The notes beneath the pieces were generated by a model. That model did not search any database. It saw nothing but the letters and a program-made list of their open reading frames with translations, and was not told where the DNA came from. Below, piece after piece: positions 32,681 to 61,224 of a DNA stretch of 64,000 nt; position 1 is the stretch's first letter; each line of letters begins with the position of its first letter. This DNA is from a virus. Position numbers and translations under genes: made by a program. The DNA lies in IMG/VR virus record IMGVR_UViG_3300046698_000515, positions 1-64,000 of that record; one strand, 5' to 3'.

Positions 32681-32688
32681 ATTTATAA

Positions 32689-32764: not shown

Positions 32765-32781
32765 ATTTCTGACAATGTATA

Positions 32782-32852: not shown

Positions 32853-32944
32853 ACGTGATGTATATTGTTGTGAAAATGAGTCTGTATAGTTTAGTGCATT
32901 TCACAGTGTGCTCCGCCATTGGGCTCATATTGAAGTAGTTAGTA

Positions 32945-33016: not shown

Positions 33017-33038
33017 GCTAACTACGGATTTTATTTTT

Positions 33039-33113
33039 GCGGTATAGGTGTTTATAGATACATACGAGACTTCCAATCTTGGGTAGAGGGTGTGATACCC
33101 TCACACCGCTCCA
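33039..33113 (+). tRNA. tRNA-Gly(TCC)
   Basis: CGAGA-CTTCCAA-TCTTG; TCCA end. Confidence 0.85.
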
Positions 33114-33887
33114 ATTTTAGAATAAATAATAGTGTGATGCCATTTAAAATTTTTTACGAAAAAATTGAATCTTGTGCTATTAAATTAGAAGATGGAAGAA
33201 TCTTTACAGGATCAGATCATGAAAGTGCAGCTGCGGAAGCTCATACAGCAGGAGTTCAATGGACTGATATTGAAAAATGTATTTGTGGTTTTATGATAGA
33301 TGGAGAATTTTTTAATAGAGAACAAGCTTTTAATATTGCAATTTCAAATGGTATTCTTTGTTTGAAACAACCATGTACTCCAGGTAGATTAGATTCTTAC
33401 GATTTACCACACTTACATCCGTAAGCATAATATTGATTTTCATATTTTGTTTGTTATTATTTCTTTACTATGAAAGTAAATGCTAAAGCTGATTTAACTG
33501 GTAATCTTGTTGTAATTAATGATAATTGGTATTATCTTTGTAAGATTGATGAACCTAAACATTTATCTACTAAACCATTAGTTAATTTTACTATACAGGG
33601 TACTTTTACAAAAGCTAAAAGATAAGCATAATATTGATTTCAATAAACTAGTTATTATCATGTCTAAGTTATGGAAAATATAAACTTAAATATAGTTAAA
33701 GGTACACTTAACAAATTAAGTGTACTTCTTGATACACAAATTGAAAAGTATACTGCAGCAAAAAAGCCTACAAATGTAGATTTTGAAAGAATTCATAAAA
33801 CACTTTCTATATATGAATCAGTTGTAGATATATATGGGAATCTTATTGGTATTGATAAAATGGGTAAGGAAGAATTGTAATTTATTT

Positions 33888-33978
33888 GCCTGTTTGGCTC
33901 AGCGGCGACAGCACCATCTTTGTAAGTTGGCAGCTTTTTAATAAGCTCACGGGAGTTCAAATCTCTCAACAGGCTCCA
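33888..33978 (+). tRNA. tRNA-Thr(TGT), long variable arm
   Basis: Loop TTTGTAA; V-arm AGCTT..AAGCT; TCCA end. Confidence 0.8.
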
Positions 33979-33986
33979 AATTTATT

Positions 33987-34076
33987 GCCAGTATGCCTCA
34001 GTAGCGACAGGACCTGTTTCGTAAACAGATAACATTTAAAAGTGTTCACGGAAGTGTAAATCTTTCTACTGGCTCC
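33987..34076 (+). tRNA. tRNA-Thr(CGT), long variable arm
   Basis: CTGT-TTCGTAA-ACAG; V-arm AACATT..AGTGTT. Confidence 0.75.
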
Positions 34077-35020
34077 GCTTCTATAAGTTGTTTAATACTT
34101 TCCCATGATAACTCATTTTTATTAAGAATTAAAAGTTTTTGAGAAATTAGTTTTTTAACTTTTTGTATTTTTTCTGCATCTGTTTGTTGGCAAAAATTAT
34201 TTTTAGGATCAAGATATGTATTATAATCTGTTAAATAAAAATCAGGATAATATTTCTTATCAATTCCGAGATTGTTTACCCATGGTATTGGTGAGGGTCT
34301 TATCCATTTAATTTTGTTTTCGTCAAGTGATTGTGCAACTTTAAATTCCCAACTTGACTCCAACCATACCTTACCAGCAAATGGTGAAGTATAGTAACCT
34401 GTTTTATGGTAATGGTTTTTATTTATACATAAGTAAGTTTTACCAATATTTACACGAACTAAATGCAGACATTTACCGCAATACTTTCTTTTATGTCTAT
34501 GTATGAATTTAATAATTGTACCACATCCACCTTTACATAATTTTGGTTGTTTATTATATTCATTTAGTATAGTTTGTTTTCTAATCGCAGCATATTTTTG
34601 TAATTTAAGAAGTTTTTGTTTCTCCTTCTCTGGTGATAATTTTCCTGAGTATCCATTTTTATTTCGTTCTTTATTACTAAATGTTGCTGAGCATGTATGT
34701 GAACAAAAATTATGCTGTCGGATCGCATTAAGACACTTTCTAACTGATTTTTTACAAGTTGTACAAAAAATTGTTCTTGTAGTAGATGGATAAGTATATA
34801 ATTTTCCACATTTACTAGAACAAAAAATAGCAGTTGTATTTTTACTTTCTTTATTTCGTTGCTTCTTTCGTCTTACTGAGCCAAGAATATTATATTTCTT
34901 TCTAGTTTGTATTTTATTACATTGTTTACATTTAAAAGGAATATTATCATTCCATTTTGAGTTAACAAATGTTTCTTTATCAATTAATAAACAATCTAGT
35001 AGTTCTTTAGGTAAATCCAT
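34046..35020 (-). CDS. free-standing homing endonuclease (TnsA-like PD-(D/E)xK C-terminus)
   Basis: FCSSKC and FCSHTC repeats; ESSWE..A..LD, YYPDFYL..YLDPK. Confidence 0.8.
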   Translation of the reverse strand: MDLPKELLDCLLIDKETFVNSKWNDNIPFKCKQCNKIQTRKKYNILGSVRRKKQRNKESKNTTAIFCSSKCGKLYTYPSTTRTIFCTTCKKSVRKCLNAIRQHNFCSHTCSATFSNKERNKNGYSGKLSPEKEKQKLLKLQKYAAIRKQTILNEYNKQPKLCKGGCGTIIKFIHRHKRKYCGKCLHLVRVNIGKTYLCINKNHYHKTGYYTSPFAGKVWLESSWEFKVAQSLDENKIKWIRPSPIPWVNNLGIDKKYYPDFYLTDYNTYLDPKNNFCQQTDAEKIQKVKKLISQKLLILNKNELSWESIKQLIEAEPVERFTLP

Positions 35021-35157
35021 ATATTAATTATTTAATGAAACATAGTCGCAATAACAAGGTGCGGCTCCTATAATAAAATTTGATACGGCTTCCTTAATCA
35101 AGAAGGTGGAAATAAAGCCGGAATGAGCGTACACTCCTGAGCCCTCAAATAAATTTT

Positions 35158-35230
35158 GCCTCTGTAATTCAAAGATAGAATATTGCTTTGGTAAAGCAAA
35201 AACGTTTGGGATTGTTACCCACCTGAGGCT
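35158..35230 (+). tRNA. tRNA-Thr(GGT)
   Basis: TTGCT-TTGGTAA-AGCAA. Confidence 0.7.
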
Positions 35231-35239
35231 CACTTTAAT

Positions 35240-35330
35240 GGCTAGTAAACTTAACAAGGTTAAGGGTTGTCTGCTAAACAACGCGCTCACCTAAGACGTG
35301 GGTCAGAGGCAGGATCTGTGCTAGCCGCCA
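35240..35330 (+). tRNA. tRNA-Ser(GCT)
   Basis: GTTGT-CTGCTAA-ACAAC, long V-arm, GCCA end. Confidence 0.8.
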
Positions 35331-35371
35331 TTTTTTATTGAAATAAAAACATATTCTAATATAATGTATCC

Positions 35372-35914
35372 ATGTTAGCATTTCATGGAACATCAATTCA
35401 AAATGCAGAATCTATTTGGAAAAATGGATTTGATATTAATGCTCCAAAAAATTGGCAATTGTCACCTAGTAATAAAATATTTTGCCTTTTAGATACAGGT
35501 GGTTCAGAATCTTTCCAATATACTTTAACACAAGCTACTCTTTCAGCTTTTCGTGAGATTGATATTGTAAAACGTGCTGTTATTGTTATTGATATTACTG
35601 GAATAAAATATGCTCCTGATTCAACAAATACTATGCCAAAACATATGACCTCGATTGAAATGAAGCATATTCCACATAATAGGGTAAAAGCAGTTTTTGC
35701 TGATGTAAATAATTTAGTCCAATATAAGTTATTATTTTACTTTCAAGTTGTTAGTAAAAATTTAAAAACAACGCTTAATATTAGTTTAACGGAAGATGAA
35801 ATTAAAGAGACATCATGTAAAATGGAAACAGGCCAATGTATTTTTACAGATATTGAAAAGATTTATAGTAGAAATATTTTTTATAAATTACCGCAAGCCA
35901 AATATTATTTATAA
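35372..35914 (+). CDS. putative ADP-ribosyltransferase-fold protein
   Basis: N-terminal FHGTS..A.SI...GF motif. Confidence 0.45.
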   Translation: MLAFHGTSIQNAESIWKNGFDINAPKNWQLSPSNKIFCLLDTGGSESFQYTLTQATLSAFREIDIVKRAVIVIDITGIKYAPDSTNTMPKHMTSIEMKHIPHNRVKAVFADVNNLVQYKLLFYFQVVSKNLKTTLNISLTEDEIKETSCKMETGQCIFTDIEKIYSRNIFYKLPQAKYYL

Positions 35915-35923
35915 ACAAATTTT

Positions 35924-36011
35924 GGAGGTAGTCCGGCATGGACGAGGACGCGATCCTGAAAATCGTCGCTGGTAAAAACAGTCGGGAGTTCGATTCTCTC
36001 TGCCTCCGCCA
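35924..36011 (+). tRNA. tRNA-Ser(TGA)
   Basis: GCGAT-CCTGAAA-ATCGT, long V-arm, GCCA end. Confidence 0.85.
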
Positions 36012-36057
36012 ATTTTACTTGATTATAATGAAATGTATTATATCATATTTTCTGAAC

Positions 36058-36146
36058 TGCAGGGACAAGCCGTGTGATGCTAACTGCGCTCATAACGCAG
36101 GAGATTAATTTCTCTATGAATAGTTAGACTCTATTCTCTGCAACCA
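36058..36146 (+). tRNA. tRNA-Met(CAT), long variable arm
   Basis: CTGCG-CTCATAA-CGCAG; V-arm GAGA..TCTC; ACCA end. Confidence 0.7.
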
Positions 36147-36152
36147 ATTTCT

Positions 36153-36244
36153 GGACCTATGATGTAATGTAGCATTGCTAGTTTTATAAACTAGGCGCAG
36201 TAGATTTCTGCCAAGTTTTGGTTCAAGTCCAAATGGGTCTACCA
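36153..36244 (+). tRNA. tRNA-Ile(TAT), long variable arm
   Basis: CTAGT-TTTATAA-ACTAG; V-arm GCAG..CTGC; ACCA end. Confidence 0.8.
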
Positions 36245-36252
36245 ATTTTCAT

Positions 36253-36330
36253 CCCACAGTAATTCATTATTAGTAGAATATCGTCCTGATAAGGCGAAAG
36301 TGATTGGGGCAGAGCCAATCTGTGGGACCA
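36253..36330 (+). tRNA. tRNA-Ile(GAT)
   Basis: TCGTC-CTGATAA-GGCGA; ACCA end. Confidence 0.85.
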
Positions 36331-36623
36331 ATTTTTGTTCTTGCAATTAATCTTGTTTGTGCTTATTATATTGACATGAAAAATTTCTTTATCTGTGGCC
36401 GTAAAAATTTTAAAGGTTATGAAGTAGCCTTAAGTGGCAACAACGTAATCATTTGGATTACTGGTGAAGAATCTCCTGAACGAGTCAAAGAAATAACCAC
36501 CGCAGTTTTACTCTATCTCGAAAATGAAGGATTTGGAGATTTAAGCCGAATGAAAGTTCGGGTAGAGCTGAAAGAGTTTGGCGAGAGTGGGGGTATTTTA
36601 GTTCCTGCATAATAATTTCAAAT

Positions 36624-36697
36624 GGGCTGCAAGCTTTAAATTGAAGCAAAAAGCTTTTAACTTTTTGAACTTGGGGAAGTACCAAGGCGGCTCACCA
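36624..36697 (+). tRNA. tRNA-Lys(TTT)
   Basis: AAAAG-CTTTTAA-CTTTT; ACCA end. Confidence 0.8.
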
Positions 36698-36709
36698 TTC
36701 CATTTTTAT

Positions 36710-36783
36710 TCCAGAGTAGCTCAACTGGTAGTAGCAGATCATTGTTAATGATCAGATTGCTGGATCGTACCCAGCCTCTGGAG
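36710..36783 (+). tRNA. tRNA-Asn(GTT)
   Basis: GATCA-TTGTTAA-TGATC; TCCAGAG/CTCTGGA-G. Confidence 0.85.
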
Positions 36784-36784
36784 C

Positions 36785-36858
36785 GGACCACAAGTATTAA
36801 AGTGATACAGCAGACTCTTAACCTGCAAAACACGGGGTAGTACCGTGGTGGTTCACCA
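36785..36858 (+). tRNA. tRNA-Lys(CTT)
   Basis: Loop CTCTTAA; ACCA end. Confidence 0.8.
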
Positions 36859-36863
36859 AATTT

Positions 36864-36934
36864 ACCTGCATAGTATAAAAGTATTACCAACGGTTTTGGC
36901 CCGTAAGAAGTAGGGGCAGTACCTACTGCAGGCG
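36864..36934 (+). tRNA. tRNA-Gln(TTG)
   Basis: ACGG-TTTTGGC-CCGT; CCTGCA/TGCAGG. Confidence 0.7.
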
Positions 36935-36946
36935 CGTTTTCTTAAT

Positions 36947-37018
36947 GCCAGTATCAAGAAGTCTTGAGCATGATTTCATATGTCATTGCGCGATTTGGAG
37001 CATTACCATCTGCTGGCA
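36947..37018 (+). tRNA. tRNA-CAT (Met or Ile2)
   Basis: ATGAT-TTCATAT-GTCAT; GCCAGTA/TGCTGGC. Confidence 0.6.
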
Positions 37019-37579
37019 CTAATTTTATCAGAAATCATTTGCATTTTATATTAGGTAATAAGAAAATGAAAATATGAACGATGAAAACGAGTCTCCTAAA
37101 AGTGCATTAAGAATTTTTCTTGATGAAATAATTGATTCAAACAATGAGTTCATACACACAGAACTTGAAACATTACAAAAAACAATTTTAAACTTTTTAT
37201 GTACTAGTAAAGGAGTGATTAGAGAACACGATCGTCGGAAGATGATCTTAACAGTTAATCAAATAACAAAACTTGAAAAGCTTCAGCAATACATTTACAA
37301 TTCACTTCTGATTTATGAAGGTCAAGGAGTTGTGGGAATGTTAGAAAGATAAATATGGATAATCCTAAAATTACAGTTCATAAAGGTGAAAAGAATCATT
37401 TTTTAAGGGTTCATCTTGATGCAGAACCTAGCGGGATGTTACGATTTGAATCTGAACATGCATATACTAAACCTGAAGCTGATTTTAGAGCAGTTATGCT
37501 TTCATCTCGATATGGTTTTGATAGGGATGAGTTACCAACACATCTGATAATCGAAGTATATCCAAAAGTATAATTTAAT

Positions 37580-37653
37580 GGGAGAGTAGTTTAAAGGTAG
37601 AACATGAATCCTACAAATTCGAGACGATGGATCGTTACCATTCTTTCCCACCA
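37580..37653 (+). tRNA. tRNA-Val(TAC)
   Basis: TGAAT-CCTACAA-ATTCG; ACCA end. Confidence 0.8.
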
Positions 37654-37659
37654 TTTTAA

Positions 37660-37735
37660 CCCAATCAAACTAACCTAGTGGAAGTGCATACCCGAAGAGT
37701 ATGAAGGTCTGGAGCATAACCAGAGATTGGGACCA
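37660..37735 (+). tRNA. tRNA-Phe(GAA)
   Basis: CATAC-CCGAAGA-GTATG; ACCA end. Confidence 0.75.
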
Positions 37736-37739
37736 TTTT

Positions 37740-37813
37740 GTTCTATTCGTCTAAAAGTAGGATATTAACCTCTCAAGTTAAAAACACCAGTGCGATACTG
37801 GTATAGAACACCA
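37740..37813 (+). tRNA. tRNA-Glu(CTC)
   Basis: TTAAC-CTCTCAA-GTTAA; ACCA end. Confidence 0.85.
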
Positions 37814-37860
37814 TATTTTAATATTGATTTTAACTTAAAATATATTATACTTTATCTATA

Positions 37861-38241
37861 ATGGATTTATTCAAAAGTTCAGGTAAGTTAGAATATCGTA
37901 ATGAAGGATGGGTAACTCTCATACCTTCTTCATCTATTGGTAGATACTATAGATGGTGGGTTGAAAAAACAATTCATCAAAAAACCAACGTTCCAATGAA
38001 AGGCTGGCATATTACTGTTGTTGCTGGAAAGTATGAAGATTGCAGTTTACATCCAGCATGGAAAAAACATGAAAATGAAATAATTGAATTTGAATATGAT
38101 CATAATGTAGTTGATGATTTTACTTCTTATTGGCTTACTATTTACTCAAGACGACTTGAAGAGATCAGATTAGAGTTAGGATTGTATCCTTTTCCAAAAT
38201 TTCCGTTTCATTTAACGGTTGCAAATCTGAAGAATCTATAA
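37861..38241 (+). CDS. 2H phosphoesterase-family protein
   Basis: Two HxT motifs: WHITV and FHLTV. Confidence 0.7.
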   Translation: MDLFKSSGKLEYRNEGWVTLIPSSSIGRYYRWWVEKTIHQKTNVPMKGWHITVVAGKYEDCSLHPAWKKHENEIIEFEYDHNVVDDFTSYWLTIYSRRLEEIRLELGLYPFPKFPFHLTVANLKNL

Positions 38242-38250
38242 ATAATATTA

Positions 38251-38322
38251 CGGAATGTAGCCTAACAGTGAGGCCCTAGTTTTGGGAACTAGTACAAGTG
38301 GGGGCAGCACCCACCATTCCGA
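38251..38322 (+). tRNA. tRNA-Pro(TGG)
   Basis: CTAGT-TTTGGGA-ACTAG; CGGAATG/CATTCCG-A; TATAAATA at 38237. Confidence 0.85.
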
Positions 38323-38336
38323 CACAATTTCGAATT

Positions 38337-38411
38337 GCTCTCAAAGTGTAATGGATTATGCACAACTGTCTACGGAACAGGAGGTTCTAGATTCGAATTC
38401 TGGTGGGAGCA
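38337..38411 (+). tRNA. tRNA-Arg(ACG)
   Basis: CTGT-CTACGGA-ACAG. Confidence 0.85.
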
Positions 38412-38419
38412 CACTTTAA

Positions 38420-38497
38420 GCTAGTGGATCGAGTAAGTAAACGAACCCGTCTGCAAAACGGTAAAAATAGTGGGAGCATTACCCACCTCTAGCTCCA
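38420..38497 (+). tRNA. tRNA-Cys(GCA)
   Basis: CCGT-CTGCAAA-ACGG; TCCA end. Confidence 0.8.
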
Positions 38498-38937
38498 ATT
38501 TTTCTTCTTGCAATCAATCAAAAATTAGTTTATATTTAAAATAATATGAAAGCAGTAATTCAACAAAAAATTGAAGAATTAGTAACAATAGTTAGAGATC
38601 AATCACCTATGAAGTAGAAATGGGATTACCAAATGCATGTGATTGCAAGGATTATTTATGTACACAGAAATAAATTTTAAAACTAAAAAACAACTTAAAG
38701 AAGCAGTTATACAAGGAGAAGAAATTCGTGTATATCAACCTAATGATGTATTTGATAGTCCTCAAGCAAAATCAAATTATTCTGGCCGTGCAGCTGTTGA
38801 AGGTCCTCATTATCCTGAAGCACATCGTTGGTATGCTTCAGTTGAAATTAAAAATGGATTAGTTGTCAAAGTAAAGTAGAAAATTTCTCAAGACAACCGA
38901 TTGATTTTCTTTCAGAAGACTCAATAATATCATTACT

Positions 38938-39501
38938 ATGAAATTCAAAATCTTAGGTATATTATCGGCTGCAGTGCTTATCATAGCACTTGCAGGTCTC
39001 ACTACAAGTACTACAGGTTGCAAAACAATTACAAACCTTATAGGTACAAACACAACTCAGATTCAATCTGATGTAATGTCGGCAGCTACACAAGCTACAA
39101 CTTATGCTCTTAACCAAGATGCAAAATCACGTATTTATTTTGTTGCAGCGACTGATGTATTGGGTTCGTTTGTAAATTCAACAAATTCAAACCCAGCAAG
39201 TATTGCGGCTGCTCTAGCTGCATTACCTATTAGTCAATTGCAATCACCTGAAGCTCAATTAGCAATTACTGCAATTTTAGGAGTATATGATATAACATAT
39301 GCATCTTATGTACAGAATGCAGTTGATCAAAATGGTATGGCTAATGCTGTACTAAATGGATTAGTCCAAGGTATAAATGCTGGTTTAGCAGCAGTTCCAG
39401 CTCCTGTTGCATCTGCAAGCACAATTGCAAGTTTAACCAATTTAAAATCACCATACATGATTATTAAACCTGGTTTAGTTCCTCAACAAAAGAAGAAGTA
39501 A
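38938..39501 (+). CDS. probable lipoprotein
   Basis: Signal peptide with a TTGC lipobox-like Cys; Ala-rich helical body. Confidence 0.65.
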   Translation: MKFKILGILSAAVLIIALAGLTTSTTGCKTITNLIGTNTTQIQSDVMSAATQATTYALNQDAKSRIYFVAATDVLGSFVNSTNSNPASIAAALAALPISQLQSPEAQLAITAILGVYDITYASYVQNAVDQNGMANAVLNGLVQGINAGLAAVPAPVASASTIASLTNLKSPYMIIKPGLVPQQKKK

Positions 39502-39519
39502 ATTATTTTAAAAATCAAT

Positions 39520-39549
39520 AGCCTATGGTGAAAGCCATAGGCTTTTTTT
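39520..39549 (+). terminator. intrinsic terminator
   Basis: AGCCTATGG-TGAAAG-CCATAGGCT then a T-run. Confidence 0.85.
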
Positions 39550-39624
39550 GTGCTAGTATTAGTGCCCTCTCCTAAAGGGTAAACGTATAAATTGGATAAT
39601 GTAGGTTCGAGCCCTAGCACACCA
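39550..39624 (+). pseudogene. degenerate tRNA-Arg(CCT) lacking a D-arm
   Basis: GCCCT-CTCCTAA-AGGGT, GGTTCGAGCCC, ACCA end; T-stem and acceptor 3' strands overlap. Confidence 0.5.
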
Positions 39625-39632
39625 TTCTAAAT

Positions 39633-39706
39633 AGCCTAATGGCGCAAAACGGTAACGCAACTCGCTCTGAACGAGAAGATTAAAGGTTCGAATCCTTTTT
39701 AGGCTG
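39633..39706 (+). tRNA. tRNA-Gln(CTG)
   Basis: CTCG-CTCTGAA-CGAG; GGTTCGAATCC. Confidence 0.85.
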
Positions 39707-51449: not shown

Positions 51450-51812
51450 TTATTCATCATGAATTCTTTTTAATGTTTCGGGATTAGGAATATAATCTGA
51501 ATAAAAGCTAACTGAAAGTAATTCTTTAATTGCAAGTTCTATTGGTAAATATATTAATACAGAAGGCTTATTTTTTGTAGCTGTATTAAATAATTCAATA
51601 ATTACCAAATTTTTTGTTCTTTCTACTACAATACCTTTACCTTTTGTAGGTGGATGTATATCATTTCCAAATATTGATGATAATAATGTCGATGTTTCTG
51701 AATCAAGAGGTAATGATTTTTCATGTGTTTTATACTCACAAATGGTGCCAACAGGAAATAAATTTTTATTTCTCTGATATGCTTCAAAAATTAATTGTGA
51801 GTCTTTATTCAT
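51450..51812 (-). CDS. LIFEAY-tagged protein
   Basis: N-terminus MNKDSQLIFEAY. Confidence 0.75.
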   Translation of the reverse strand: MNKDSQLIFEAYQRNKNLFPVGTICEYKTHEKSLPLDSETSTLLSSIFGNDIHPPTKGKGIVVERTKNLVIIELFNTATKNKPSVLIYLPIELAIKELLSVSFYSDYIPNPETLKRIHDE

Positions 51813-52087
51813 TATTTTAAATATTCTGCAGAAAATATTAATTTATTATTGTCTGAAAATTCACCAACACCTTCTTCTTCCCAATTACTTTTTATTAATC
51901 CTTTTTGTGCTAAATCATATAAAATATCATCCATACCTGGACAATTTCCACCATAAACAGGTTTTGCTAATTTACATAATTTTTCATGTGTTATTCCTTC
52001 ATTTTGTTTAATCAAATTCAACACATCATTTTCATATGTTCTGTGCTTTTTATAAGCTTCAAAAATTAATTGCGAATCTTTATTCAT
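51812..52087 (-). CDS. LIFEAY-tagged protein, possible wHTH body
   Basis: N-terminus MNKDSQLIFEAY. Confidence 0.75.
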   Translation of the reverse strand: MNKDSQLIFEAYKKHRTYENDVLNLIKQNEGITHEKLCKLAKPVYGGNCPGMDDILYDLAQKGLIKSNWEEEGVGEFSDNNKLIFSAEYLK

Positions 52088-52440
52088 TATAGAACACTAC
52101 CACGTTTATAGAGTGCTTTGGTCCCAGTACCGGGTTTTACAACAGGACCATCAGAAGAATGCATATCTACAAGTTCTTGTGCTAATTCCTTAATAACTTC
52201 AAATTTTGCATCTTGTTCTTGAGGATTACCAGGATTATGCTCAAGTTGAACAATAGTTTGTAAAATTTCATTACCTATTGTAACTTCTCGTTTTTCAGCA
52301 GGATTTGACATATCTGTCTCATCATGTTGAGGAGTTTCAGGAGCTGGTTGTTCACCTTCTTCTTTTATAACTTTTGTTCTTGATTGTTTAAAGGCTTCGA
52401 ATATTAAGCGATCGTCTCGTTTCATAAGTGGTATTGTCAT
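52087..52440 (-). CDS. LIFEAF-tagged acidic protein
   Basis: MKRDDRLIFEAF; AATAAATA upstream. Confidence 0.7.
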   Translation of the reverse strand: MTIPLMKRDDRLIFEAFKQSRTKVIKEEGEQPAPETPQHDETDMSNPAEKREVTIGNEILQTIVQLEHNPGNPQEQDAKFEVIKELAQELVDMHSSDGPVVKPGTGTKALYKRGSVL

Positions 52441-52457
52441 AAATATTTATTAGTAAT

Positions 52458-54203
52458 ATGATTGATTTTGAAGAATATTGTAAGAATTCACTTTTATTAG
52501 AATACAACCAGGCAATAATTGTAATGCTAATAGAAAAATTTAAGAAAGAGCGAAAAAATCTGACAGATCAACAAATATACTATTATATTAATAGATTTGA
52601 TCAGGTAAGAAATTCTCCTAGATTTGTTGAAATTGTAAGTGCTACTTATCCAGCTATTACTAATCCAAAAGATATTTTGCAATTTACATTCAGACAAATA
52701 GAATCTATTGTTGACCAATTTCCACAACGCGAAAAACAAACTCCTACACCGCAAAATAATTTATCACAAGAAGATCCTTATAAAGATTTACAATTAGTTT
52801 CTAGTGCAAATGGATTAAAAATATATCACGCAACAAGTCAACAAGGATGTATCGCTATTAATAAGGGTATATTTGATAGAACATATAATTTTTGTGTTTC
52901 TACTAGTAGTGCAGGCAATCTTTATAATAATTATAGATTTAGTGGTAAAGGATATTCATTTTATTTTGTTTATGATCCTTCATTAAATAAGGCAAATATT
53001 CTACATTTATTAGTTTTACAAATCAGTCCTTCTGGAAAAATAATATTTACTACCGCTGCTAATACAGGAAACAGCCAAATTTCTTGGAAAGAATTACTTA
53101 AAATGCAGCCAAAATTAAAGGGGCTTGAAAGTGTTTTTTCGTTTCATCCTTATACACGAGAAGAGAAAATAATAAAAGCAATTGAAAGTAGATCACCTAC
53201 ACAATTTGGTAGACTTAGCTATGATGATAAGAAAATGTATATACAATTAGGTGGTGAAATAAATGTAATCAATTATAGAGCTTTACCAGGAGAATTAAAA
53301 TTAGTGTATATTAATCATTTACCTTTCACTAAACGGTTAAAAGAAAATATAGTTAACTGGATTAAACAGCATGAACCAAATAATTGGGCACGTTTACAAG
53401 AATTATTACATTTAGAAGAGTTTAAAAATTTATCACAAATTGGAATACTACGTAAATTGAAATTTTTTAATAATCCATGTTTTGCTAAATTAGCTTATAG
53501 AAACTTAGGCATTAATCCAATAACAATAAAATTAGGAAGGAGTACCGTTATTAATGACCAATGTTGTTTAATTTTTCCGTATAAAGATGCTGAACAGTTA
53601 TTATCAACAGTAACACAAAACAACTTAAATAAAATACAAGAAAGATTTAAAATAACATGGGATACTATTTATACATATCCATTATTAGTATTTAATTATC
53701 ACTATGCTGCCGCAGCATATGTACTAAAGTGGAGTTATTTTATATTCGGTAAAACAAGAAAAGGTAAACAAGTGATTTATGCAAGAAAAGAAACGTGGTC
53801 ACCGGAAGCGGGGCAAACTTATTTATACACTGAAGAAGGAAAAGGTATGGCAACAGATTATGTAAAACCAACAGAATATTATAGAGGTAATGTAAATCCA
53901 GTAAAATATCCTAAAGGACGTAAACTAAATTTAGAAAATTTTGAAGATTTTAGTAAGAAAACTCTTTTATTAGAATTTAATGAGGCAACTATAAATGAAA
54001 TTGCAGATGCAGCACCAGTTGTAGAACCAGCAGAACCAACTACAATTCCTCGTCCAGTTAAACCCGCTACACCACAACCAAGGCCTCAACATCCTATGCA
54101 ACCAACACGACCTAATATTAAACCGCGTCCTAAAGCAGAAGATGATAATCCTGATGTTGAATTATTTTACCGATTGAGAGGAATTACATATGGGAACAAT
54201 TAA
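52458..54203 (+). CDS. probable internal virion protein, paralog of the middle module of 54190-58248
   Basis: MIDFEEY..LLLE start, second LLLE before a Pro-rich tail; shared IEKFK.E..L....I.YY..RF.Q..NS.[RK]FVE. Confidence 0.75.
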   Translation: MIDFEEYCKNSLLLEYNQAIIVMLIEKFKKERKNLTDQQIYYYINRFDQVRNSPRFVEIVSATYPAITNPKDILQFTFRQIESIVDQFPQREKQTPTPQNNLSQEDPYKDLQLVSSANGLKIYHATSQQGCIAINKGIFDRTYNFCVSTSSAGNLYNNYRFSGKGYSFYFVYDPSLNKANILHLLVLQISPSGKIIFTTAANTGNSQISWKELLKMQPKLKGLESVFSFHPYTREEKIIKAIESRSPTQFGRLSYDDKKMYIQLGGEINVINYRALPGELKLVYINHLPFTKRLKENIVNWIKQHEPNNWARLQELLHLEEFKNLSQIGILRKLKFFNNPCFAKLAYRNLGINPITIKLGRSTVINDQCCLIFPYKDAEQLLSTVTQNNLNKIQERFKITWDTIYTYPLLVFNYHYAAAAYVLKWSYFIFGKTRKGKQVIYARKETWSPEAGQTYLYTEEGKGMATDYVKPTEYYRGNVNPVKYPKGRKLNLENFEDFSKKTLLLEFNEATINEIADAAPVVEPAEPTTIPRPVKPATPQPRPQHPMQPTRPNIKPRPKAEDDNPDVELFYRLRGITYGNN

Positions 54204-57200
54204 TTTTGAAACATTTTATCTTCTCGAATCTGTTTTTGATGATGCTTACACCCATTGGAAGATTGAAGCGGGTGTTGATCCTAGTGGAATAACAGGTGAC
54301 ACTATAGAAGAATACATCGACACATTCAAGATATTAAAACAACGTAACTTTCTAAAAGGATCAGAAGCAGATATTTCTCCATGGATTAAGAAACCTTTCA
54401 GTGATTTTAAAGCCTTTGTTGATGCTAAAAGTAAACAGCACGAGCAGAAAAGCGCCATCAAACGAACAGAAGGAGATATTGAACGCGTATTTGAGAATGA
54501 ATTTTGCACGATAGTCTGTCCTAATACATTTGAAGCTTCGAAGAAATACGGAGCGGGAACTAAATGGTGTATAAGCGGAAATGTTATTCAACACTGGAAG
54601 AGCTATACAGAGAAGGGTACAAAATTCTACTTCATATTACCGAAGAATAATACACATAAATTAGCTGTGGCCGTTTATCAGAATAATTCTTCTAAAGAAG
54701 TGTATAATGAGCTCGATCAGACTATATCTATACAAAAATTTACTGCGCTATTAAAGCAGTATGCTATTCCAAAGACAGTATTATTTACGAACGAAATGGA
54801 TTGGGATAAATGGCTATTACAGCACAAGCACACTATTAATCCTGATGGAAGTGTAGATATAGATGGAGATATGAATCTATCTGAAATGAAGCTGAAGGAG
54901 CTTCCATTTAAGTTTGGAAAAGTAACAGGAAATTTTTACTGTTACAGCAATCAGCTCACGTCACTTCAAGGAGCACCCTCGAAGGTAAGAGGTGATTTTT
55001 ACTGTTCTTACAATCAGCTCACGTCACTTCAAGGAGCACCTTCGGAGGTAAGAGGTGATTTTTACTGTCATTGCAATCAGCTCACGTCGCTTCAAGGAGC
55101 ACCCTCGGAGGTAAGAGGTGATTTTTACTGTTCTGACAATCAGCTCACATCACTTCAAGGAGCACCTTCGGAGGTAGGAGGAGTTTTTTACTGTAATTAC
55201 AATCAGCTCACGTCACTTCAAGGAGCACCCTCGGAGGTAAGAGGTGATTTTTACTGTTCTGACAATCAGCTCACGTCACTTCAAGGAGCACCCTCGAAGG
55301 TAAGAGGTGATTTTTACTGTCATAGCAATCAGCTCACGTCGCTTCAAGGAGCACCTTCGGAGGTAAGAGGGGATTTTTACTGTTTTAGCAATCCAAAATT
55401 AAAACAAGCAGATATTGATAAATTAAAACAATTTTATAAAAATCAAAAAATGAAGAAGAAAAATATAACTGAAGCATTTGAATTAGGAGATAAACCGGAC
55501 ATGTTCCATTCTTCTCGACAGAAGCTTTACAAGAAACCATTACCTGTCGAAGAAACTTTTCCTGATTTAGGAGATACAACAAAAATGAAAAATTTTTCAG
55601 ATTTTTATAACGAAAGACTCTTATTAGAGTTTAATGATGTAACTGTTAAGAAACTTATAGAAAAGTTTAAAACGGAGCAAAATAGTTTATCTAATGAAAA
55701 TATTCTTTATTATTTACAACGTTTTGAACAATTAAAAAATAGTACTAAATTTGTTGAATTAATCAAAGATAAATTTCCAGAAATAACTATTCAAAATGAT
55801 ATATTTCAGTATACCTTTAAACAATTAGAATATGGAGTAGATCAATTTCCTAAAAATAATACGCTACAACAAGCGCTACAACAAGTAAGCCCACAACAGA
55901 ATCTAATCTTATTAGGAGAAAATGAAGGATTAAAAGTATATTATGCTAAAAATGAGCAGGGCTGTATTGAAGTTAATAGTGGTGTGTTTGGTAATACAAA
56001 ACCTTATTCATTTTGTGTTACACGGAAACATAATGGAATGTATGGAAGCTATCGATATGGAAAACATGAATCTTCTTTTTATTTTTTATATGATTCAACA
56101 TTACGTGTAACAGATATTAAACATCTGTTAGTAATACAAGTTACTAAATGTAAAACATTTATTCTAACTTATGCAAATAATACCTATAATGAAGAAATAA
56201 CATTAGAAGAATTATTAAAAATACAACCTAAATTAGCCCCTATTATTAATTTATTAACACATCAGAAATATAATGCTGAAGAAGCAATAGCTAAATGGGT
56301 TGCTAATCATGAATATTATAGTAGTATGCGTACTTATGAAGAGAAAAAAATGTGGTTAGAAATGCGCCCTCGCGGCTTAATACTTCAAGATTTTAAAACA
56401 TTGCCAGATGACTTAAAGAATTTATGGTGTAATGTATATGATGATGGTACGTTTTCCTATATAAATATAAATGAAATATTTAAATATATTTTTTTACACG
56501 AGCCAGCTTTAACAAAAAGATTTTTGCAAAGATTTTATAGACATGAATTTCATAAATTATGTTTTGAAGAGTTAGAGAAAATTTTACCTGCTAATTTAAA
56601 GCAAGAAGTAAAGGAAAATTATTTTGGTAAAGAAAATCTTGAAAAAATAAACACGTTAACAGATCCAATTGAACTTTTTGAACTATTAGCTAAACTTAAT
56701 TATGCTACACTCAATTATGACACAGTTAATAGTAAATTCCCAAAAATTAGTATAATTAGAAATAATAAAAAACTAGTAAATAAGAGGGCGGCAATTGAAA
56801 CAGATTATAATAAGATAGAAAAATATTTACCATCTATAATACAGAGAAATATAAATAACATTAAAGGTAAGTTTAATATAAAATTTAATAAAATTTATCT
56901 TATACCTAACAAACCGTCACGATATGATATCTCACCTGCCTGGCTTTATTATATTTTAGGAACTACAAAAAAAGGAAAAGATGTATTATATTATAGGCGC
57001 CAGGGAATAAACCCTCAATCAACATTTTCAAAATTTTTTATTAATGACAAAATGTATAAACTTGTGAATTTATTCAATAAAGATAATTTTGAACAAATGA
57101 AAAAAATAACAGAAGCATTTGAATTAGGAGATAAACCGGACATGTTCCATTCTTCTCGACAGAAGCTTTACAAGAAACCATTACCTGTCGAAGAAACTTT

Positions 57201-58248
57201 TCCTGATTTAGGAAATACTGCACAGAGATATATTGAATTTATCACAAGCGAAAGCTATAAAAAAGCTGTTGAAAGAATGGAAAGATACTTAGGAATGCAA
57301 GCAACAGGTGAGAATTTACCGCAAGCAATCCAACTAATTTTTAGCTCATACATGCAAGTAATACAATTTCAACAAGGGCATGAGAAACAATTAGCAAAAT
57401 TAGCATTGCAAACAGTTTTAGAATTAGAAGAGTTTAAATTATTTAAAGATCTATGTGATAAAGGATACATTATAGTCGATGCTCAAATTGACACTCCTAA
57501 CTTAGATAATGCATTATTACAAAGTGAAAAGCCAAAAGATAAGAAACAGTTGACTAAAACTGAATTAGCAAATGTTAAAGCAGCACAACTCTTTACTTCT
57601 ACGGATGAAAATGTATTGAAGAGGAAGTTTGCTAATATGATTTCACAAGGTAATGCAGTAAATAAACTTTATTTGTTTCAATTAGCATCTGATAAGTTAA
57701 ACGCAATGCATCCTAGATTAGTTAATTTATATGGCATTACTGCATTAGGAGCACAAATAGCGTATTATGCACAACCTAATATTAAACTAAGTCGTGAAAT
57801 GTTAGAAATGGCTCAAGTAGGATCTGAAGAAGTTACTCCTGAAAAGAATGGACCTGAAAAGAATGGAGTTTATAAGATTACTGCTCGTGCATCACTCTTT
57901 CCTTACTTAATTCATGAAATAGTTAAAGGATTTTATGATTATCTGTCAATGGATTTAGTACCTCAAGAAGAACTAGATAAGGAGACTATTGAGGATGAGA
58001 TGGTAGATATAATGTCAGGTCCTGAATTATACAGCAAAATAACACAATTTATCCCTCAAGATAAGAACTACCTCACTCCGCTCGTGTATAAACTACTAAT
58101 CAACAAACCTATAGCAACTATTAAACAAGTACTATATGGAGGAGGACAGGCCCAGAATATCTATAAGGCTTTAATAGGTGAAGCAGAAGCAGCAATGAAG
58201 AAGTTTAACGAACCAGAAGAACCTACGGATTATAATCCTAAATATTGA
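54190..58248 (+). CDS. modular 1352-aa protein with a 21-aa LRR-like array, probable virion polyprotein
   Basis: Modules start MGTINFETFYLLE, MKKKNITE, MKNFSDFY..LLLE and MKKITE. Confidence 0.8.
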   Translation: MGTINFETFYLLESVFDDAYTHWKIEAGVDPSGITGDTIEEYIDTFKILKQRNFLKGSEADISPWIKKPFSDFKAFVDAKSKQHEQKSAIKRTEGDIERVFENEFCTIVCPNTFEASKKYGAGTKWCISGNVIQHWKSYTEKGTKFYFILPKNNTHKLAVAVYQNNSSKEVYNELDQTISIQKFTALLKQYAIPKTVLFTNEMDWDKWLLQHKHTINPDGSVDIDGDMNLSEMKLKELPFKFGKVTGNFYCYSNQLTSLQGAPSKVRGDFYCSYNQLTSLQGAPSEVRGDFYCHCNQLTSLQGAPSEVRGDFYCSDNQLTSLQGAPSEVGGVFYCNYNQLTSLQGAPSEVRGDFYCSDNQLTSLQGAPSKVRGDFYCHSNQLTSLQGAPSEVRGDFYCFSNPKLKQADIDKLKQFYKNQKMKKKNITEAFELGDKPDMFHSSRQKLYKKPLPVEETFPDLGDTTKMKNFSDFYNERLLLEFNDVTVKKLIEKFKTEQNSLSNENILYYLQRFEQLKNSTKFVELIKDKFPEITIQNDIFQYTFKQLEYGVDQFPKNNTLQQALQQVSPQQNLILLGENEGLKVYYAKNEQGCIEVNSGVFGNTKPYSFCVTRKHNGMYGSYRYGKHESSFYFLYDSTLRVTDIKHLLVIQVTKCKTFILTYANNTYNEEITLEELLKIQPKLAPIINLLTHQKYNAEEAIAKWVANHEYYSSMRTYEEKKMWLEMRPRGLILQDFKTLPDDLKNLWCNVYDDGTFSYININEIFKYIFLHEPALTKRFLQRFYRHEFHKLCFEELEKILPANLKQEVKENYFGKENLEKINTLTDPIELFELLAKLNYATLNYDTVNSKFPKISIIRNNKKLVNKRAAIETDYNKIEKYLPSIIQRNINNIKGKFNIKFNKIYLIPNKPSRYDISPAWLYYILGTTKKGKDVLYYRRQGINPQSTFSKFFINDKMYKLVNLFNKDNFEQMKKITEAFELGDKPDMFHSSRQKLYKKPLPVEETFPDLGNTAQRYIEFITSESYKKAVERMERYLGMQATGENLPQAIQLIFSSYMQVIQFQQGHEKQLAKLALQTVLELEEFKLFKDLCDKGYIIVDAQIDTPNLDNALLQSEKPKDKKQLTKTELANVKAAQLFTSTDENVLKRKFANMISQGNAVNKLYLFQLASDKLNAMHPRLVNLYGITALGAQIAYYAQPNIKLSREMLEMAQVGSEEVTPEKNGPEKNGVYKITARASLFPYLIHEIVKGFYDYLSMDLVPQEELDKETIEDEMVDIMSGPELYSKITQFIPQDKNYLTPLVYKLLINKPIATIKQVLYGGGQAQNIYKALIGEAEAAMKKFNEPEEPTDYNPKY
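54928..55392 (+). repeat. 63-bp tandem array, 7 full units plus 1 partial (GDFYCxxNQLTSLQGAPSEVR)
   Basis: Directly visible near-identical units. Confidence 0.95.
55471..57213 (+). repeat. 102-bp perfect direct repeat at 55471-55572 and 57112-57213
   Basis: Identical copies encoding EAFELGDKPDMFHSSRQKLYKKPLPVEETFPDLG. Confidence 0.95.
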
Positions 58249-58880
58249 CCAGGGTGATCGTATTTTTCTAAATCATGTTTAAATAACTGATTTAATGGAC
58301 CATCAGGATCATATGTTGTTTGTAATGTCCAAGTTCCTTTTCTACCAGTATAAATTTTTGTTGCAATAGTATCTTCACCACTTCCCCAGGCATAATTTGC
58401 ATTTTGTGCAGCTTGTGCTCCAAATTTTTTCTTAATTATCGTTTCTTGTGCCTTACATACTCTATTTTGTAATTCCATATCATGTTCATCTGGTTCATCT
58501 TCTGGAACAGAAGTTGGAATTTTTTCTTTGAGAGGTTTTTTGCTTCGATAATAAGCTTCAAATATTTTAACAGATTCACCTAACGCTCCATAAGAAGGGC
58601 CATTATGTTCATTTTCAATTCCTGGTGATTGAGGCGGAACTTTCTTACTTAAAGGAGTTTTAATAATACTTTGTTGTGCTTCAGGGCTACCGGATGCTTT
58701 TGTGACAAAATCCAATATCATTTTAAATATTTTTTCAAGTTCAGTAGAACCACCCTCTCCTTCTTCTTGAGGATTATTCATGTCACTAGGAAAGCTTCCT
58801 GGATTTGCTTCTGTAAAAAGTTTATCAGGTATATTAGCTTTTTTGTAAGCTTCAAATATTAAATGTGATTCATTATTCAT
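58230..58880 (-). CDS. LIFEAY-tagged protein with two tags
   Basis: MNNESHLIFEAY and internal ESVKIFEAY. Confidence 0.75.
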   Translation of the reverse strand: MNNESHLIFEAYKKANIPDKLFTEANPGSFPSDMNNPQEEGEGGSTELEKIFKMILDFVTKASGSPEAQQSIIKTPLSKKVPPQSPGIENEHNGPSYGALGESVKIFEAYYRSKKPLKEKIPTSVPEDEPDEHDMELQNRVCKAQETIIKKKFGAQAAQNANYAWGSGEDTIATKIYTGRKGTWTLQTTYDPDGPLNQLFKHDLEKYDHPGQYLGL

Positions 58881-59455
58881 TTAATTGTATAACCAAGTTC
58901 TTTACAAGCATATTTAGCAGTTCTGATAGCATCTTGTCCTTCCAACCCTAACCTATGTGCTTTATCAATAGCTAAAGTCCAACAATTTTCAGATTCACTG
59001 CCACCTTCAGCTGATGCATCTGCTAAAAACCTTTCAACATGTCGAATGATTTTATTAACATGAAAAACATTGATACAACGAGACATACCTGGATCACGAA
59101 TTACAATTGTACGCCTAGACCCTGGAAATTTTATCCGGTCACCAACTCGAGAAACTCGATAATTTATTGGTTTTGCTGAACGTAAACTAGCTCGTCCACT
59201 TTTTATTATTTGTAAAAGACCGGAAAGACTTATTTCTTTGTTTATGTCTGTTTCTAATTCTCTAATTGTAACAACTCCATTTTGATTAGCATCAATAGTA
59301 TAATCATGACCTAACATTAAAAGCTGATAACCTGGTCTAATATTTGATTCAGTTTGTTTATCTACCATTTTTGGTTGTTTATCCCAAGATCTCGGCACAT
59401 CTATTGCTTCTTTAATATAAGCTTCAAATATAAGATGTGTGTCATTATTCATCAT
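58877..59455 (-). CDS. LIFEAY-tagged protein
   Basis: MNNDTHLIFEAY. Confidence 0.75.
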   Translation of the reverse strand: MMNNDTHLIFEAYIKEAIDVPRSWDKQPKMVDKQTESNIRPGYQLLMLGHDYTIDANQNGVVTIRELETDINKEISLSGLLQIIKSGRASLRSAKPINYRVSRVGDRIKFPGSRRTIVIRDPGMSRCINVFHVNKIIRHVERFLADASAEGGSESENCWTLAIDKAHRLGLEGQDAIRTAKYACKELGYTIK

Positions 59456-59706
59456 GATGGCTTGTAATTTATTTGTGCGTTATTTGTAAAAGCTGTTATT
59501 ACATTTCCTTCTTGTTTAACAAGTGAAAGAATAACTAATGCTTTAATGAATGGTGTAACATCTTTTCCAGAAAAGTTTTTTAAAAGATTAGCAACATCAG
59601 TTGATTTGTGCCGCTGAATGAAATTAAAAATAGTTTGTAAAGTGAAGAGTACATCGTTTGCTCCACCATTATATGCTTCAAATATTAAACGAGAATCATT
59701 ATTCAT
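59452..59706 (-). CDS. LIFEAY-tagged protein
   Basis: MNNDSRLIFEAY. Confidence 0.75.
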   Translation of the reverse strand: MNNDSRLIFEAYNGGANDVLFTLQTIFNFIQRHKSTDVANLLKNFSGKDVTPFIKALVILSLVKQEGNVITAFTNNAQINYKPS

Positions 59707-59709
59707 AAA

Positions 59710-60060
59710 TTATTGTTGACGTGTTCCATTTCCAGGTTGTAAAGTTGTATTAGTATTTGCTATTGGAGGTTGAGAAGCTGCAGCACCAGGAGCTCTATCA
59801 TCACGCTGATTAGTTATTTGAGTTGTATCTAAACCATATTTTGAAACTAATCTATCAACTTCTGCATCAGGCATAGTTGAAACATTTCCAAGAAAAGGAG
59901 CAAGTCCAAGTTCAACACATTTTTTACCAAACACTTCTAAGCGACGTCGAGCATCAAACATTCCATTTTCATTTGGTGAATATTGAATACTAAAGAGTTT
60001 AGCATCATGAAACCTACTATCTTGATATGCTTCAAATATTAGATATGAATCTTTATTCAT
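59710..60060 (-). CDS. LIFEAY-tagged protein
   Basis: MNKDSYLIFEAY. Confidence 0.75.
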   Translation of the reverse strand: MNKDSYLIFEAYQDSRFHDAKLFSIQYSPNENGMFDARRRLEVFGKKCVELGLAPFLGNVSTMPDAEVDRLVSKYGLDTTQITNQRDDRAPGAAASQPPIANTNTTLQPGNGTRQQ

Positions 60061-60063
60061 GAA

Positions 60064-61224
60064 TTATTGCGGGCCTTCCAAAGGAGGAATGTTAGTTTTA
60101 GAAACTGGACCTTCCACTTCAACTGCTTGAGCTTCAGGTTCATTTTTAACTGGTGTTAATTGATAACCTGAAATTGCATACATTGTTCTACCATCTTCAA
60201 AAGTTATATCATAATATTCATAATCTTTATCTGGTTCATCACCTTCAGCAGCACATTGACATGCACAACAATCAATAGTAGCTATTTTTCCTTCATATTG
60301 TTCTAGTACTTCTTGCCAATTTTTAATATCACTTTCTTTTCCAGGATGATCATTAGAAGAAGGTTCGTCAAAAGGACTATCATCACCAAATTCAGAAGAT
60401 GAAATATCATTCATGTTAAAAGTTACCTTTGTTCCATCAGGAATTGCTTGTCTTGATCCTTCATTTCCTTCACCCGGATCACCTTCCGCAGCACTAGAAA
60501 CAAGAGAATGTAATTGTTTTTCTTCCTTTGGGGTATACGGTGTTTGCCCAGGTATCATTTTATAATCTTCTTTGTACATATGTTTATATGCTTCGAATAT
60601 ACATGATTCATCGTTTTTATTCAACGAAACATTTTCTCTGAATTTGTGAAGTTTTGTTTTAGGAATGTTACCTGCCCCGGTTTTTTTGTCATTCCATTTC
60701 TTTCCATGGGGAAGAACTACATTCTTATTATGAAGGTGTCTATCATCATTTTCACCAATACCAGTTTGACGTTCTTGAGTATAATTAATTTCACCCCCTT
60801 TAGCCTTTTTAGCATCTATTTCAGTAGGCTTAATCTGTGTTGAATCTTTACGACGTTTATTTTCTGGAACTTTTGTAAGATTAATTCCTGTATAAACACG
60901 TGTGAGAAGTTTTGTAGGCACGGTCATGAAGTCAATATATAACCCAGGAGCAGTCTCACGAGTTATATCAGCCAAATTTGCTAATTCGTTCTCATAATTA
61001 CCATAACTACCTTGAACAGAAGTTGGCCATGCTTTGGTTGCACTTATACGTAGAGTGTCACCTGATGTAATAAATTCTTGAATCTTATTAGCATAGTCAG
61101 GATTTTCTTGTACCCATGAATTTTTTTCCCAACCTTTTTTAAAATTAACGGGATCACCAGTTAAAAATGCACTTCGTTGAAAACGAACCATTGTTGATTC
61201 TAATAGTTTAGTAAATTTTGACAT
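60064..61224 (-). CDS. late protein with MSKFTKLLE start and an internal CIFEAY tag
   Basis: CATAAATA upstream; internal NKNDESCIFEAY. Confidence 0.7.
   Translation of the reverse strand: MSKFTKLLESTMVRFQRSAFLTGDPVNFKKGWEKNSWVQENPDYANKIQEFITSGDTLRISATKAWPTSVQGSYGNYENELANLADITRETAPGLYIDFMTVPTKLLTRVYTGINLTKVPENKRRKDSTQIKPTEIDAKKAKGGEINYTQERQTGIGENDDRHLHNKNVVLPHGKKWNDKKTGAGNIPKTKLHKFRENVSLNKNDESCIFEAYKHMYKEDYKMIPGQTPYTPKEEKQLHSLVSSAAEGDPGEGNEGSRQAIPDGTKVTFNMNDISSSEFGDDSPFDEPSSNDHPGKESDIKNWQEVLEQYEGKIATIDCCACQCAAEGDEPDKDYEYYDITFEDGRTMYAISGYQLTPVKNEPEAQAVEVEGPVSKTNIPPLEGPQ

Follow-up and report, generated by a model that had tools for sequence, protein, structure and literature searches.

The subject of this analysis is a tandem array of near-identical repeats in a 1352-aa open reading frame (ORF) of a phage from an environmental sample, recorded as IMG/VR entry IMGVR_UViG_3300046698_000515. 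The window analysed is the first 64 kb (64,000 nt) of this 73,565-bp viral contig (G000), for which CheckV gives a completeness of 34%. The array is a 21-residue variant of the 'Bacterial' class of leucine-rich repeats (LRRs) with Cys at position 6, and the two hypervariable residues in each unit are that part of the usual four-position concave ligand face which varies in this young array. With considerable confidence, the make-up of this face is attributed to selection, acting without a diversity-generating retroelement (DGR). The fuller explanation, in which a selected LRR binding arc and turnover of its units are joined to a proposed packaging of the protein in the phage head, is judged probable as a whole, and the packaging step taken by itself is held more tentatively.

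Tandem Repeats Finder (TRF) identified a 63-nt period at 54932-55393 (7.3 copies, 89% matches, 0 indels, score 724), and in-frame reading gave the unit consensus F-Y-C-x-x-N-Q-L-T-S-L-Q-G-A-P-S-E/K-V-R-G-D. An earlier, sequence-only reading of this DNA had described eight 63-bp units that are almost identical except for the two codons after Cys; the near-identity and the variable pair were confirmed, with the count restated as seven full units and one cap. The array and its variable pairs are located as follows.

54190..58248, + strand: 1352-aa ORF, made up of leader, N-domain, LRR array, linker, module 2, second linker and module 3
54871..54933, + strand: irregular first (N-cap) LRR unit, from in-frame reading and the structural model
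54934..55374, + strand: seven full 63-nt (21-residue) LRR units, from TRF and in-frame reading
54943..54948, + strand: variable pair of unit 1 (Y S), recurring every 63 nt
55006-55011, 55069-55074 and 55132-55137, + strand: variable pairs (S Y), (H C) and (S D)
55195-55200, 55258-55263, 55321-55326 and 55384-55389, + strand: variable pairs (N Y), (S D), (H S) and (F S)
55375..55457, + strand: eighth unit, with F-Y-C-x-x-N retained and followed by the C-terminal cap helix (residues 406-418 in the model)

The codon pairs following Cys are, as first listed, TAC AGC, TCT TAC, CAT TGC, TCT GAC, AAT TAC, TCT GAC, CAT AGC and TTT AGC; the third base is C in 8/8 second codons and T in 7/8 first codons. 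Across the seven full units 12 of the 63 columns vary, and five of these fall inside the six columns of the two codons (hypergeometric P = 6e-4), where the mean pairwise difference per site is 0.476, compared with 0.051 in the other 57. The further variants reported from the sequence alone (AAG/GAG, AGA/GGA, AAT/GAT/GTT, TCA/TCG and CCC/CCT) are all present, and ACG/ACA and GGT/GGA/GGG also vary among units, but the excess of A among them did not reach significance. Outside the two codons 6/7 variable columns involve A, four of them as A/G transitions (binomial against one half, ~0.06), and an adenine bias at these columns was rejected. The G+C content of the array is 45%, compared with 35% for the N-domain and 29% for the remaining ORF, a value reached by 2.4% of the 465-nt windows of the contig.

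Sequence and fold comparisons were both used to place the repeat, and together they bear out the 'LRR-like' label that it first carried. A phmmer search against PDB sequences returned the SspH2 LRR (E = 9.7e-19), internalin-J (1.9e-10), SspH1 (5e-8) and IpaH7.8 (5e-7), and the top rows of a Foldseek search against PDB were the LRR domains of IpaH7.8, SspH1, IpaH1.4 and IpaH2.5. An AlphaFold model covering residues 1-437, for which 28 aligned sequences were used, gave a pLDDT of 95-98 over the repeats. According to PMC2946307, the LRR conserved segment LxxLxLxxNxL is hydrophobic at positions 4, 6 and 11 with Asn at position 9, and the 'Bacterial' class is defined by units of 20-22 residues, whose extended variable segment contains Pro. 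Here F4, C6, N9 and L11 are invariant or almost so in every unit, and the 21-residue units show YopM/IpaH-type similarity, as a variant with G-x-P in place of L-P-x-L-P. No LRR family matched the 1352-aa ORF at E of 1 or less in a Pfam search; precomputed PF12799 (LRR_4) annotation was found on 51 of the best 120 homologues.

The likeness to the SspH/IpaH (NEL) effectors and YopM lies in a common N-Q-L-T-S-L ... P-S-E-L/V rhythm and in a unit formed of a short beta strand and an extended segment. The phage unit differs from theirs in having 21 residues and not 20, in its Cys at position 6 and in its G-x-P. SspH and IpaH proteins belong to type III secretion pathogens, whereas the protein described here is phage-encoded, lacks a NEL ligase domain and has as its partner an uncharacterised phage N-domain. 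Internalin-J is like the phage array in both its 21-residue unit and its Cys at position 6. InlJ is a secreted, wall-anchored bacterial adhesin; in contrast, no signal peptide was noticed in the phage protein, which carries a phage leader instead.

For characterization of the variable face, a homologue search was carried out; of its 7998 candidates, 3879 scored E of 1e-5 or less. The best 120 were fetched, and the 106 of these with at least 6 units (996 units in total) were used for face statistics. With more than 3800 homologues the family is large and unstudied, and it consists of short LRR binders joined to phage-specific domains. Mean within-array entropy was 2.1, 2.1, 1.8 and 2.2 bits at positions 3, 5, 7 and 8, respectively, with the core F, C, N, L, L, G and P staying at 0.0-0.1 bits. 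The two variable codons correspond to LRR positions 7 and 8, directly before the conserved structural Asn, and DSSP assigned a short strand at F-Y, immediately preceding the variable pair. Because positions 3, 5, 7 and 8 are the most variable ones within the arrays of the homologues, the variable pair belongs to the usual LRR ligand face. The expectation that the variable residues would occupy a binding-type surface thus agrees with their LRR register, the confidently modelled solenoid and the variability across homologues. That positions 7 and 8 are exposed and form a row along the arc is predicted only indirectly, from LRR geometry, the DSSP register and a polar make-up, and to this extent the case for a binding face is weakened.

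D, N, S, Y, G and H predominated at the concave positions 3, 5, 7 and 8, where only 5-12% by position was made up of K/E/Q/W/M. At the exposed positions 10, 15, 19 and 20, the latter five residues accounted for 53-83%, with an entropy of 1.0-1.4.

Substitution within the variable codons was then compared with that in the scaffold. At positions 7/8, differences at codon positions 1-2 amounted to 0.45-0.64 per site, with 0.07-0.20 at the third bases of the same codons and 0.05-0.12 per site at scaffold third positions. The same contrast (0.435 against 0.131) could be seen in an independent array, in the 212-aa LRR protein of Vibrio phage VB_VaC_SRILMA, where the 0.435 at exposed codon positions 1-2 compares with 0.042 and 0.134 in the scaffold. 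Replacement change that outruns silent change within the same codons points to positive selection on recently duplicated units; since Y-to-R changes at the third base alter the residue or give a stop, third positions are not fully neutral, and the contrast in rates overstates omega somewhat, which has to be set against this conclusion. The NNY appearance of the exposed codons arises because the third base is retained as inherited, and within the NNY codon set one or two steps separate the residues seen at the variable sites.

A mechanism consistent with these observations can be proposed. Each unit would form one rung of the solenoid, with the same position of every unit lining up along the arc, so that the variable codons would stand at the end of the concave-side strand, before the structural Asn; positions 3 and 5 vary as well in relatives. 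The units would be near-identical through recent duplication, recombination would keep them alike within and between two paralogous genes, and positive selection for an altered binding surface would drive replacements at positions 1-2 of the exposed codons. No reverse transcriptase would be involved.

The second of these paralogous genes, referred to here as paralogue 2, begins at 72499 and follows immediately on the portal and adaptor genes. Its array was found at G000 73228-73565, at the end of the contig and outside the window; it is 91% identical to the first, and its di-residues (YN, HY, SY, YC, HY and DY) show the same pattern. The contig end overlaps a related contig, G002, by 253 nt with 2 mismatches, neither of which falls in the eight position-7/8 codons covered, and paralogue 2 has about 10 units once joined to G002. 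Between the scaffold consensus sequences of the two arrays 0/17 third positions differ, compared with 28% in the adjoining N-domains (P = 0.004).

Comparison with orthologues extended this picture. The F-x-C unit count is 8 in the gene described here, 5 in an orthologue at locus L004 and 5 in homologue P0001, and orthologue arrays differ in unit content as well as in number. All 63 nt of unit 4 of the array, a rare ACA codon included, are matched in unit 3 of the L004 orthologue, and the N-domains adjoining these two arrays differ by 13%. The L004 orthologue, with a length of only 476 aa, varies at all four face positions 3, 5, 7 and 8. Scaffold likeness beyond its apparent age fits exchange between units and between paralogues. 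The idea of unit shuffling under selection, raised as one of two options in the sequence-only reading, is therefore supported in part, by the 8/5/5 unit counts with their differing contents and by the excess of change at codon positions 1-2.

Population variation was also looked for in sequencing data. Of 14 runs found, 3 contained two thirds of the sampled words. Logan contigs of four runs (X1-X4) were short pieces, broken inside the array, that mixed paralogues and relatives; one joint among them skips 319 nt with 4 letters between, which amounts to five units fewer, and its origin is a diverged relative. Two metagenome scans, one for a flank pattern and one for a scaffold pattern, gave no matches, and neither did megablast of the ORF against the phage collection.

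Outside the array, the 1352-aa ORF and its upstream neighbour contain the following parts.

54190..54228, + strand: 13-residue N-terminal leader ending L-L-E (residues 11-13), a candidate capsid-targeting and protease-cleavage signal on the basis of its motif
54229..54870, + strand: N-domain, a helical bundle followed by an alpha/beta part, matching phrog_28193 and phrog_17056 (both of unknown function)
55458..55577, + strand: 120-nt linker encoding I-T-E and A-F-E sites, repeated at 57099-57218 with 98% identity
55585..57098, + strand: module 2, starting at an internal Met, with its own leader ending L-L-L-E
57220..58248, + strand: module 3, without a family match
52458..54203, + strand: 581-aa ORF, a paralogue of module 2, whose leader ends L-L-L-E at residues 12-15

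Over 490 columns, module 2 and the 581-aa ORF are 32% identical (E = 2e-75). The 581-aa ORF has its leader a second time, close to the C-terminus. A 51-nt leader-coding stretch occurs three times, at 52465-52515, 53938-53988 and 55592-55642 (the latter two with 80% and 65% identity to the first), and together with the 120-nt linker repeats it marks the module borders in both ORFs. The 1352-aa ORF thus has the look of three modules, tagged by leaders, in a single frame. It is exactly after the I-T-E-A-F-E junction that contigs from runs X1-X3 diverge, with loose ends at 55481/55482; this suggests that modules have been swapped at the junction.

Residues D61, I62, G121, T124, W126 and C127 of the N-domain are invariant. 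No Pfam match was obtained for this domain at E of 1 or less, and in a VIA-align comparison with 48,161 PDB representatives Z stayed below 8 throughout, the highest being 6.8, to designed helical repeats and over the helical part only. In the atlas it falls into unnamed viral clusters, with a weak lead to PcfJ (0.89; PF14284 in 33% of cluster members). Comparison with PcfJ domains (PF14284) by hhalign gave probabilities of 0.2% and 0.5%. PcfJ proteins do share the LRR module, as seen in 17 of the best 120 homologues, but not demonstrably the N-domain.

The protein may be an internal head protein, as its leader suggests. The phage is a distant relative of T4: its portal is 32-33% identical to cyanophage gp20, and PHROGs matches include baseplate hub, wedge subunits, clamp loader, ribonucleotide reductase and head-tail adaptor. 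In T4, as given in PMC9026906 and PMC9958956, cleavage by gp21 falls after L/I-x-E, and internal proteins are brought into the head by a leader about 10 residues long; PMC3012670 describes these proteins as a diverse set of injected anti-defence proteins. A leader of this type is present in the LRR protein, with L-L-E at residues 11-13, and [LI]-x-E precedes the first conserved Trp in 26/28 aligned homologues. Within the first 30 residues, the leader motif was found in 10/236 ORFs of at least 50 aa, all ten of which lie at 51450-60060, at 67898-68338 or at 72499. Six ORFs, paralogue 2 included, have a 10-residue leader ending I-F-E or L-R-E, with Glu at residue 10. The tagged neighbours of the LRR gene are listed below.

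51450..52440, - strand: three consecutive small ORFs (51450-51812, 51812-52087 and 52087-52440) with a common leader ending L-I-F-E
58230..60060, - strand: four ORFs (58230-58880, 58877-59455, 59452-59706 and 59710-60060) with a common leader ending L-I-F-E
60064-61224, - strand: fifth ORF of a five-ORF run (58230..61224), with L-L-E at residues 7-9 and an internal I-F-E-A-Y

The leaders of the small tagged ORFs, a further one at G000 67898-68338 (- strand) included, end L-I-F-E or L-I-L-E, in most cases with Glu at residue 10, and these ORFs gave no family match. Those flanking the LRR gene look like a T4-style set of internal-protein genes. No prohead protease is encoded on the G000 fragment itself; on G002, which continues paralogue 2 with head closure, a prohead protease and a scaffold-like ORF, the protease is matched by Peptidase_S77 at 76 bits, above cut-off. 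With G000 and G002 joined at their overlap, paralogue 2 lies between portal/head-tail adaptor genes and the prohead-protease gene.

On this basis a leader of the T4 capsid-targeting type would load the protein into the prohead, the prohead protease would clip it after L/I-x-E, and the protein would be expelled, along with the DNA, into the host; cleavage of the same kind would divide the 1352-aa ORF into three modules. The LRR face would then bind a host molecule, perhaps a defence protein. Packaging in the head followed by injection is put forward tentatively, at a level slightly short of even. A broader proposal goes with it and is held a shade more tentatively again: that T4-like phages of peat and freshwater load fast-evolving LRR binders into the capsid by means of a targeting leader, some of them as polyproteins cleaved at L/I-x-E by the prohead protease, and that after injection the concave face, rich in Asp, Asn, Ser and Tyr, neutralises defence proteins or other proteins of the host while changing by repeat turnover with no dedicated mutator.

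Several points weigh against this proposal. Packaging and injection are read from motif and gene position only, and L/I-x-E is a short and common motif. The specificity of the protease of this phage is assumed by analogy with T4. The gene carries L-L-E at residues 11-13 and not the 10-residue leader that paralogue 2 shares with other ORFs. Furthermore, the L004 orthologue follows a probably structural ORF of at least 980 aa (a weak head-closure match), an arrangement that also fits an outer virion role.

Such a role forms the main competing explanation, namely that the LRR protein is an outer part of the virion, a tail or fibre adhesin for the host surface. The position of the L004 orthologue, directly after that large ORF, speaks for it, as does the location of the gene between replication genes and baseplate wedge genes. 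LRR adhesins exist, and internalin-J was the second-best PDB sequence match; in BFVD a weak fold match was obtained to a Pseudomonas phage PA5oct 'structural protein' (E = 3.9e-4). A diverse LRR-like ORF is also described in PMC10945359 for the tail module of other Vibrio phages, which again would suit an adhesin. Set against these points are the L/I-x-E endings of leaders throughout the family, the placement of the gene among about ten leader-tagged ORFs and the position of paralogue 2 in the head block, adjoining the prohead protease. PHROGs and Pfam searches turned up neither a fibre nor a baseplate attachment domain. An adhesin is accordingly regarded as unlikely, although it is the alternative that survives best.

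Compared with T4 IPI, IPII, IPIII and Alt, the proteins described here are alike in the short L/I-x-E leader and in a diverse, fast-changing cargo behind a conserved leader, and the overlapping contig encodes a T4-type prohead protease. They differ in their cargo, where a large LRR binder with further modules fused to it stands in place of a small basic protein. Variable-face LRRs and T4 leader-tagged internal proteins are each known already; a search of the open literature found no paper linking capsid-targeting leaders with LRRs. If the injected-binder proposal is true, the protein would be to phages what the LRR effectors are to type III secretion pathogens. Should packaging hold, phage internal proteins would include modular, retargetable binders, and the variable face would point to host targets in an arms race.

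Selection on the face has its own alternative, in which the two positions are simply unconstrained and drift, with no selection for change. The positions are exposed and tolerate many residues across the family, as drift would allow. However, codon positions 1-2 differ 3 to 8 times more than their own or scaffold third positions, and drift should not carry the replacement rate above the silent rate. The other exposed positions (10, 15, 19 and 20) are nearly fixed within arrays and have a different make-up. Drift is for these reasons considered improbable, and selection is preferred.

Still less probable is the other option raised in the sequence-only reading, in which a DGR with an AAT AAC template would alter the two codons through adenine mutagenesis. 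Several observations favour it: variation falls on codon positions 1-2 with Y kept at the third base, 133/136 exposed codons over five arrays are NNY (four overlapping units counted twice), and the residues seen (Y, S, H, N, D, C and F) are all reachable from AAY. In addition, only about a third of the genome is in hand by the CheckV estimate, so that a reverse transcriptase could be encoded elsewhere, a point that counts against an explanation by selection alone.

A reverse transcriptase and a non-coding copy of the array were both looked for across the 73.5-kb contig, and neither was found. No RVT_1 match was obtained at E of 1 or less in G000 or in two related contigs, G001 and G002, and the 195,770-bp Vibrio phage VB_VaC_SRILMA genome, which is complete and has an array of the same pattern, likewise gave none. 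The array DNA matches only two places in G000, both of them coding arrays, and no template copy was detected. Per unit there are 17 consensus adenines, of which only 5 vary in the first array. The third-position A of CAA, GGA, GCA, GTA and AGA is invariant in 12/12 units, and three of these sites are fully synonymous; such invariant synonymous adenines weigh against a DGR, which would be expected to hit them. Column 12 (C/T) and CCC/CCT vary without A. The sequence-only reading had itself set the CCC/CCT variation, several invariant A positions and the absence of a reverse transcriptase from the window against a DGR.

Relatives and assemblies lead to the same verdict. One unit is identical at all 63 nt between phages with diverged flanks, and the position-7/8 codons covered are unchanged between assemblies that differ at other sites. 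GAA, AAA and TCG, none of them NNY, were found at exposed codons, and K, E, Q, W or M, which no NNY codon encodes, occupy 320/3984 exposed cells (8%) in the homologue set. Known DGR targets have a C-type-lectin or Ig fold, unlike the LRR fold of this protein. The array therefore resembles DGR variable proteins only in its NNY-looking codons at exposed residues; it shows no A-specificity, and neither a reverse transcriptase nor a template was found in the 73.5-kb contig. Adenine mutagenesis is set aside in favour of selection on duplicated units, with the wider implication that NNY-looking repeat variation can come from recent unit duplication and selection alone, a caution for DGR calls made from sequence only.

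A code like that of transcription activator-like effectors (TALEs), in which each di-residue would read one unit of a polymeric target, is just as remote: the likeness is formal (near-identical repeats with two variable residues), the unit belongs to a beta-strand LRR arc like that of SspH/IpaH and not to a helical TALE repeat, four positions per unit and not two vary in relatives, Asp, Asn, Ser and Tyr abound on the face, and nothing points to a polymeric target. TALE repeats are helical, have 33-35 residues and read one base each, whereas the units here are 21-residue beta-strand LRRs, and a one-repeat-per-target code finds no support in an LRR arc that forms one continuous face. Both TALE repeats and lamprey variable lymphocyte receptors (VLRs) consist of near-identical repeats with few variable surface residues, as here. 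Lamprey VLRs are LRRs that vary on the concave face; the phage differs from them in that a flanking cassette library is absent and nothing indicates somatic assembly, with only two arrays in 73.5 kb, both within complete ORFs.

Some further features of the phage were recorded. The portal has 832 aa (L003 6999-9497, equivalent to G000 68998-71496), and both the portal profile and gp20 match it in two separate pieces; it therefore carries a large insert. The ribonucleotide reductase match is likewise split, with profile positions 33-520 in ORF 21169-23028 and 520-696 in ORF 24241-24954, and an unrelated 397-aa ORF lies between the two pieces (window 21169-24954). HNH and endonuclease VII-like ORFs are many and are scattered across the window. 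The first 900 nt of the window (1-900) have a G+C content of 52-57%, compared with 32.5% for the contig. ARAGORN reported ten tRNA genes at window positions 27961-39707, one of which (32944-33018) has a four-base anticodon and overlaps an ORF start; several are unusually long at 87-92 nt, namely those for Trp, two for Thr and one for Ile (anticodon tat).

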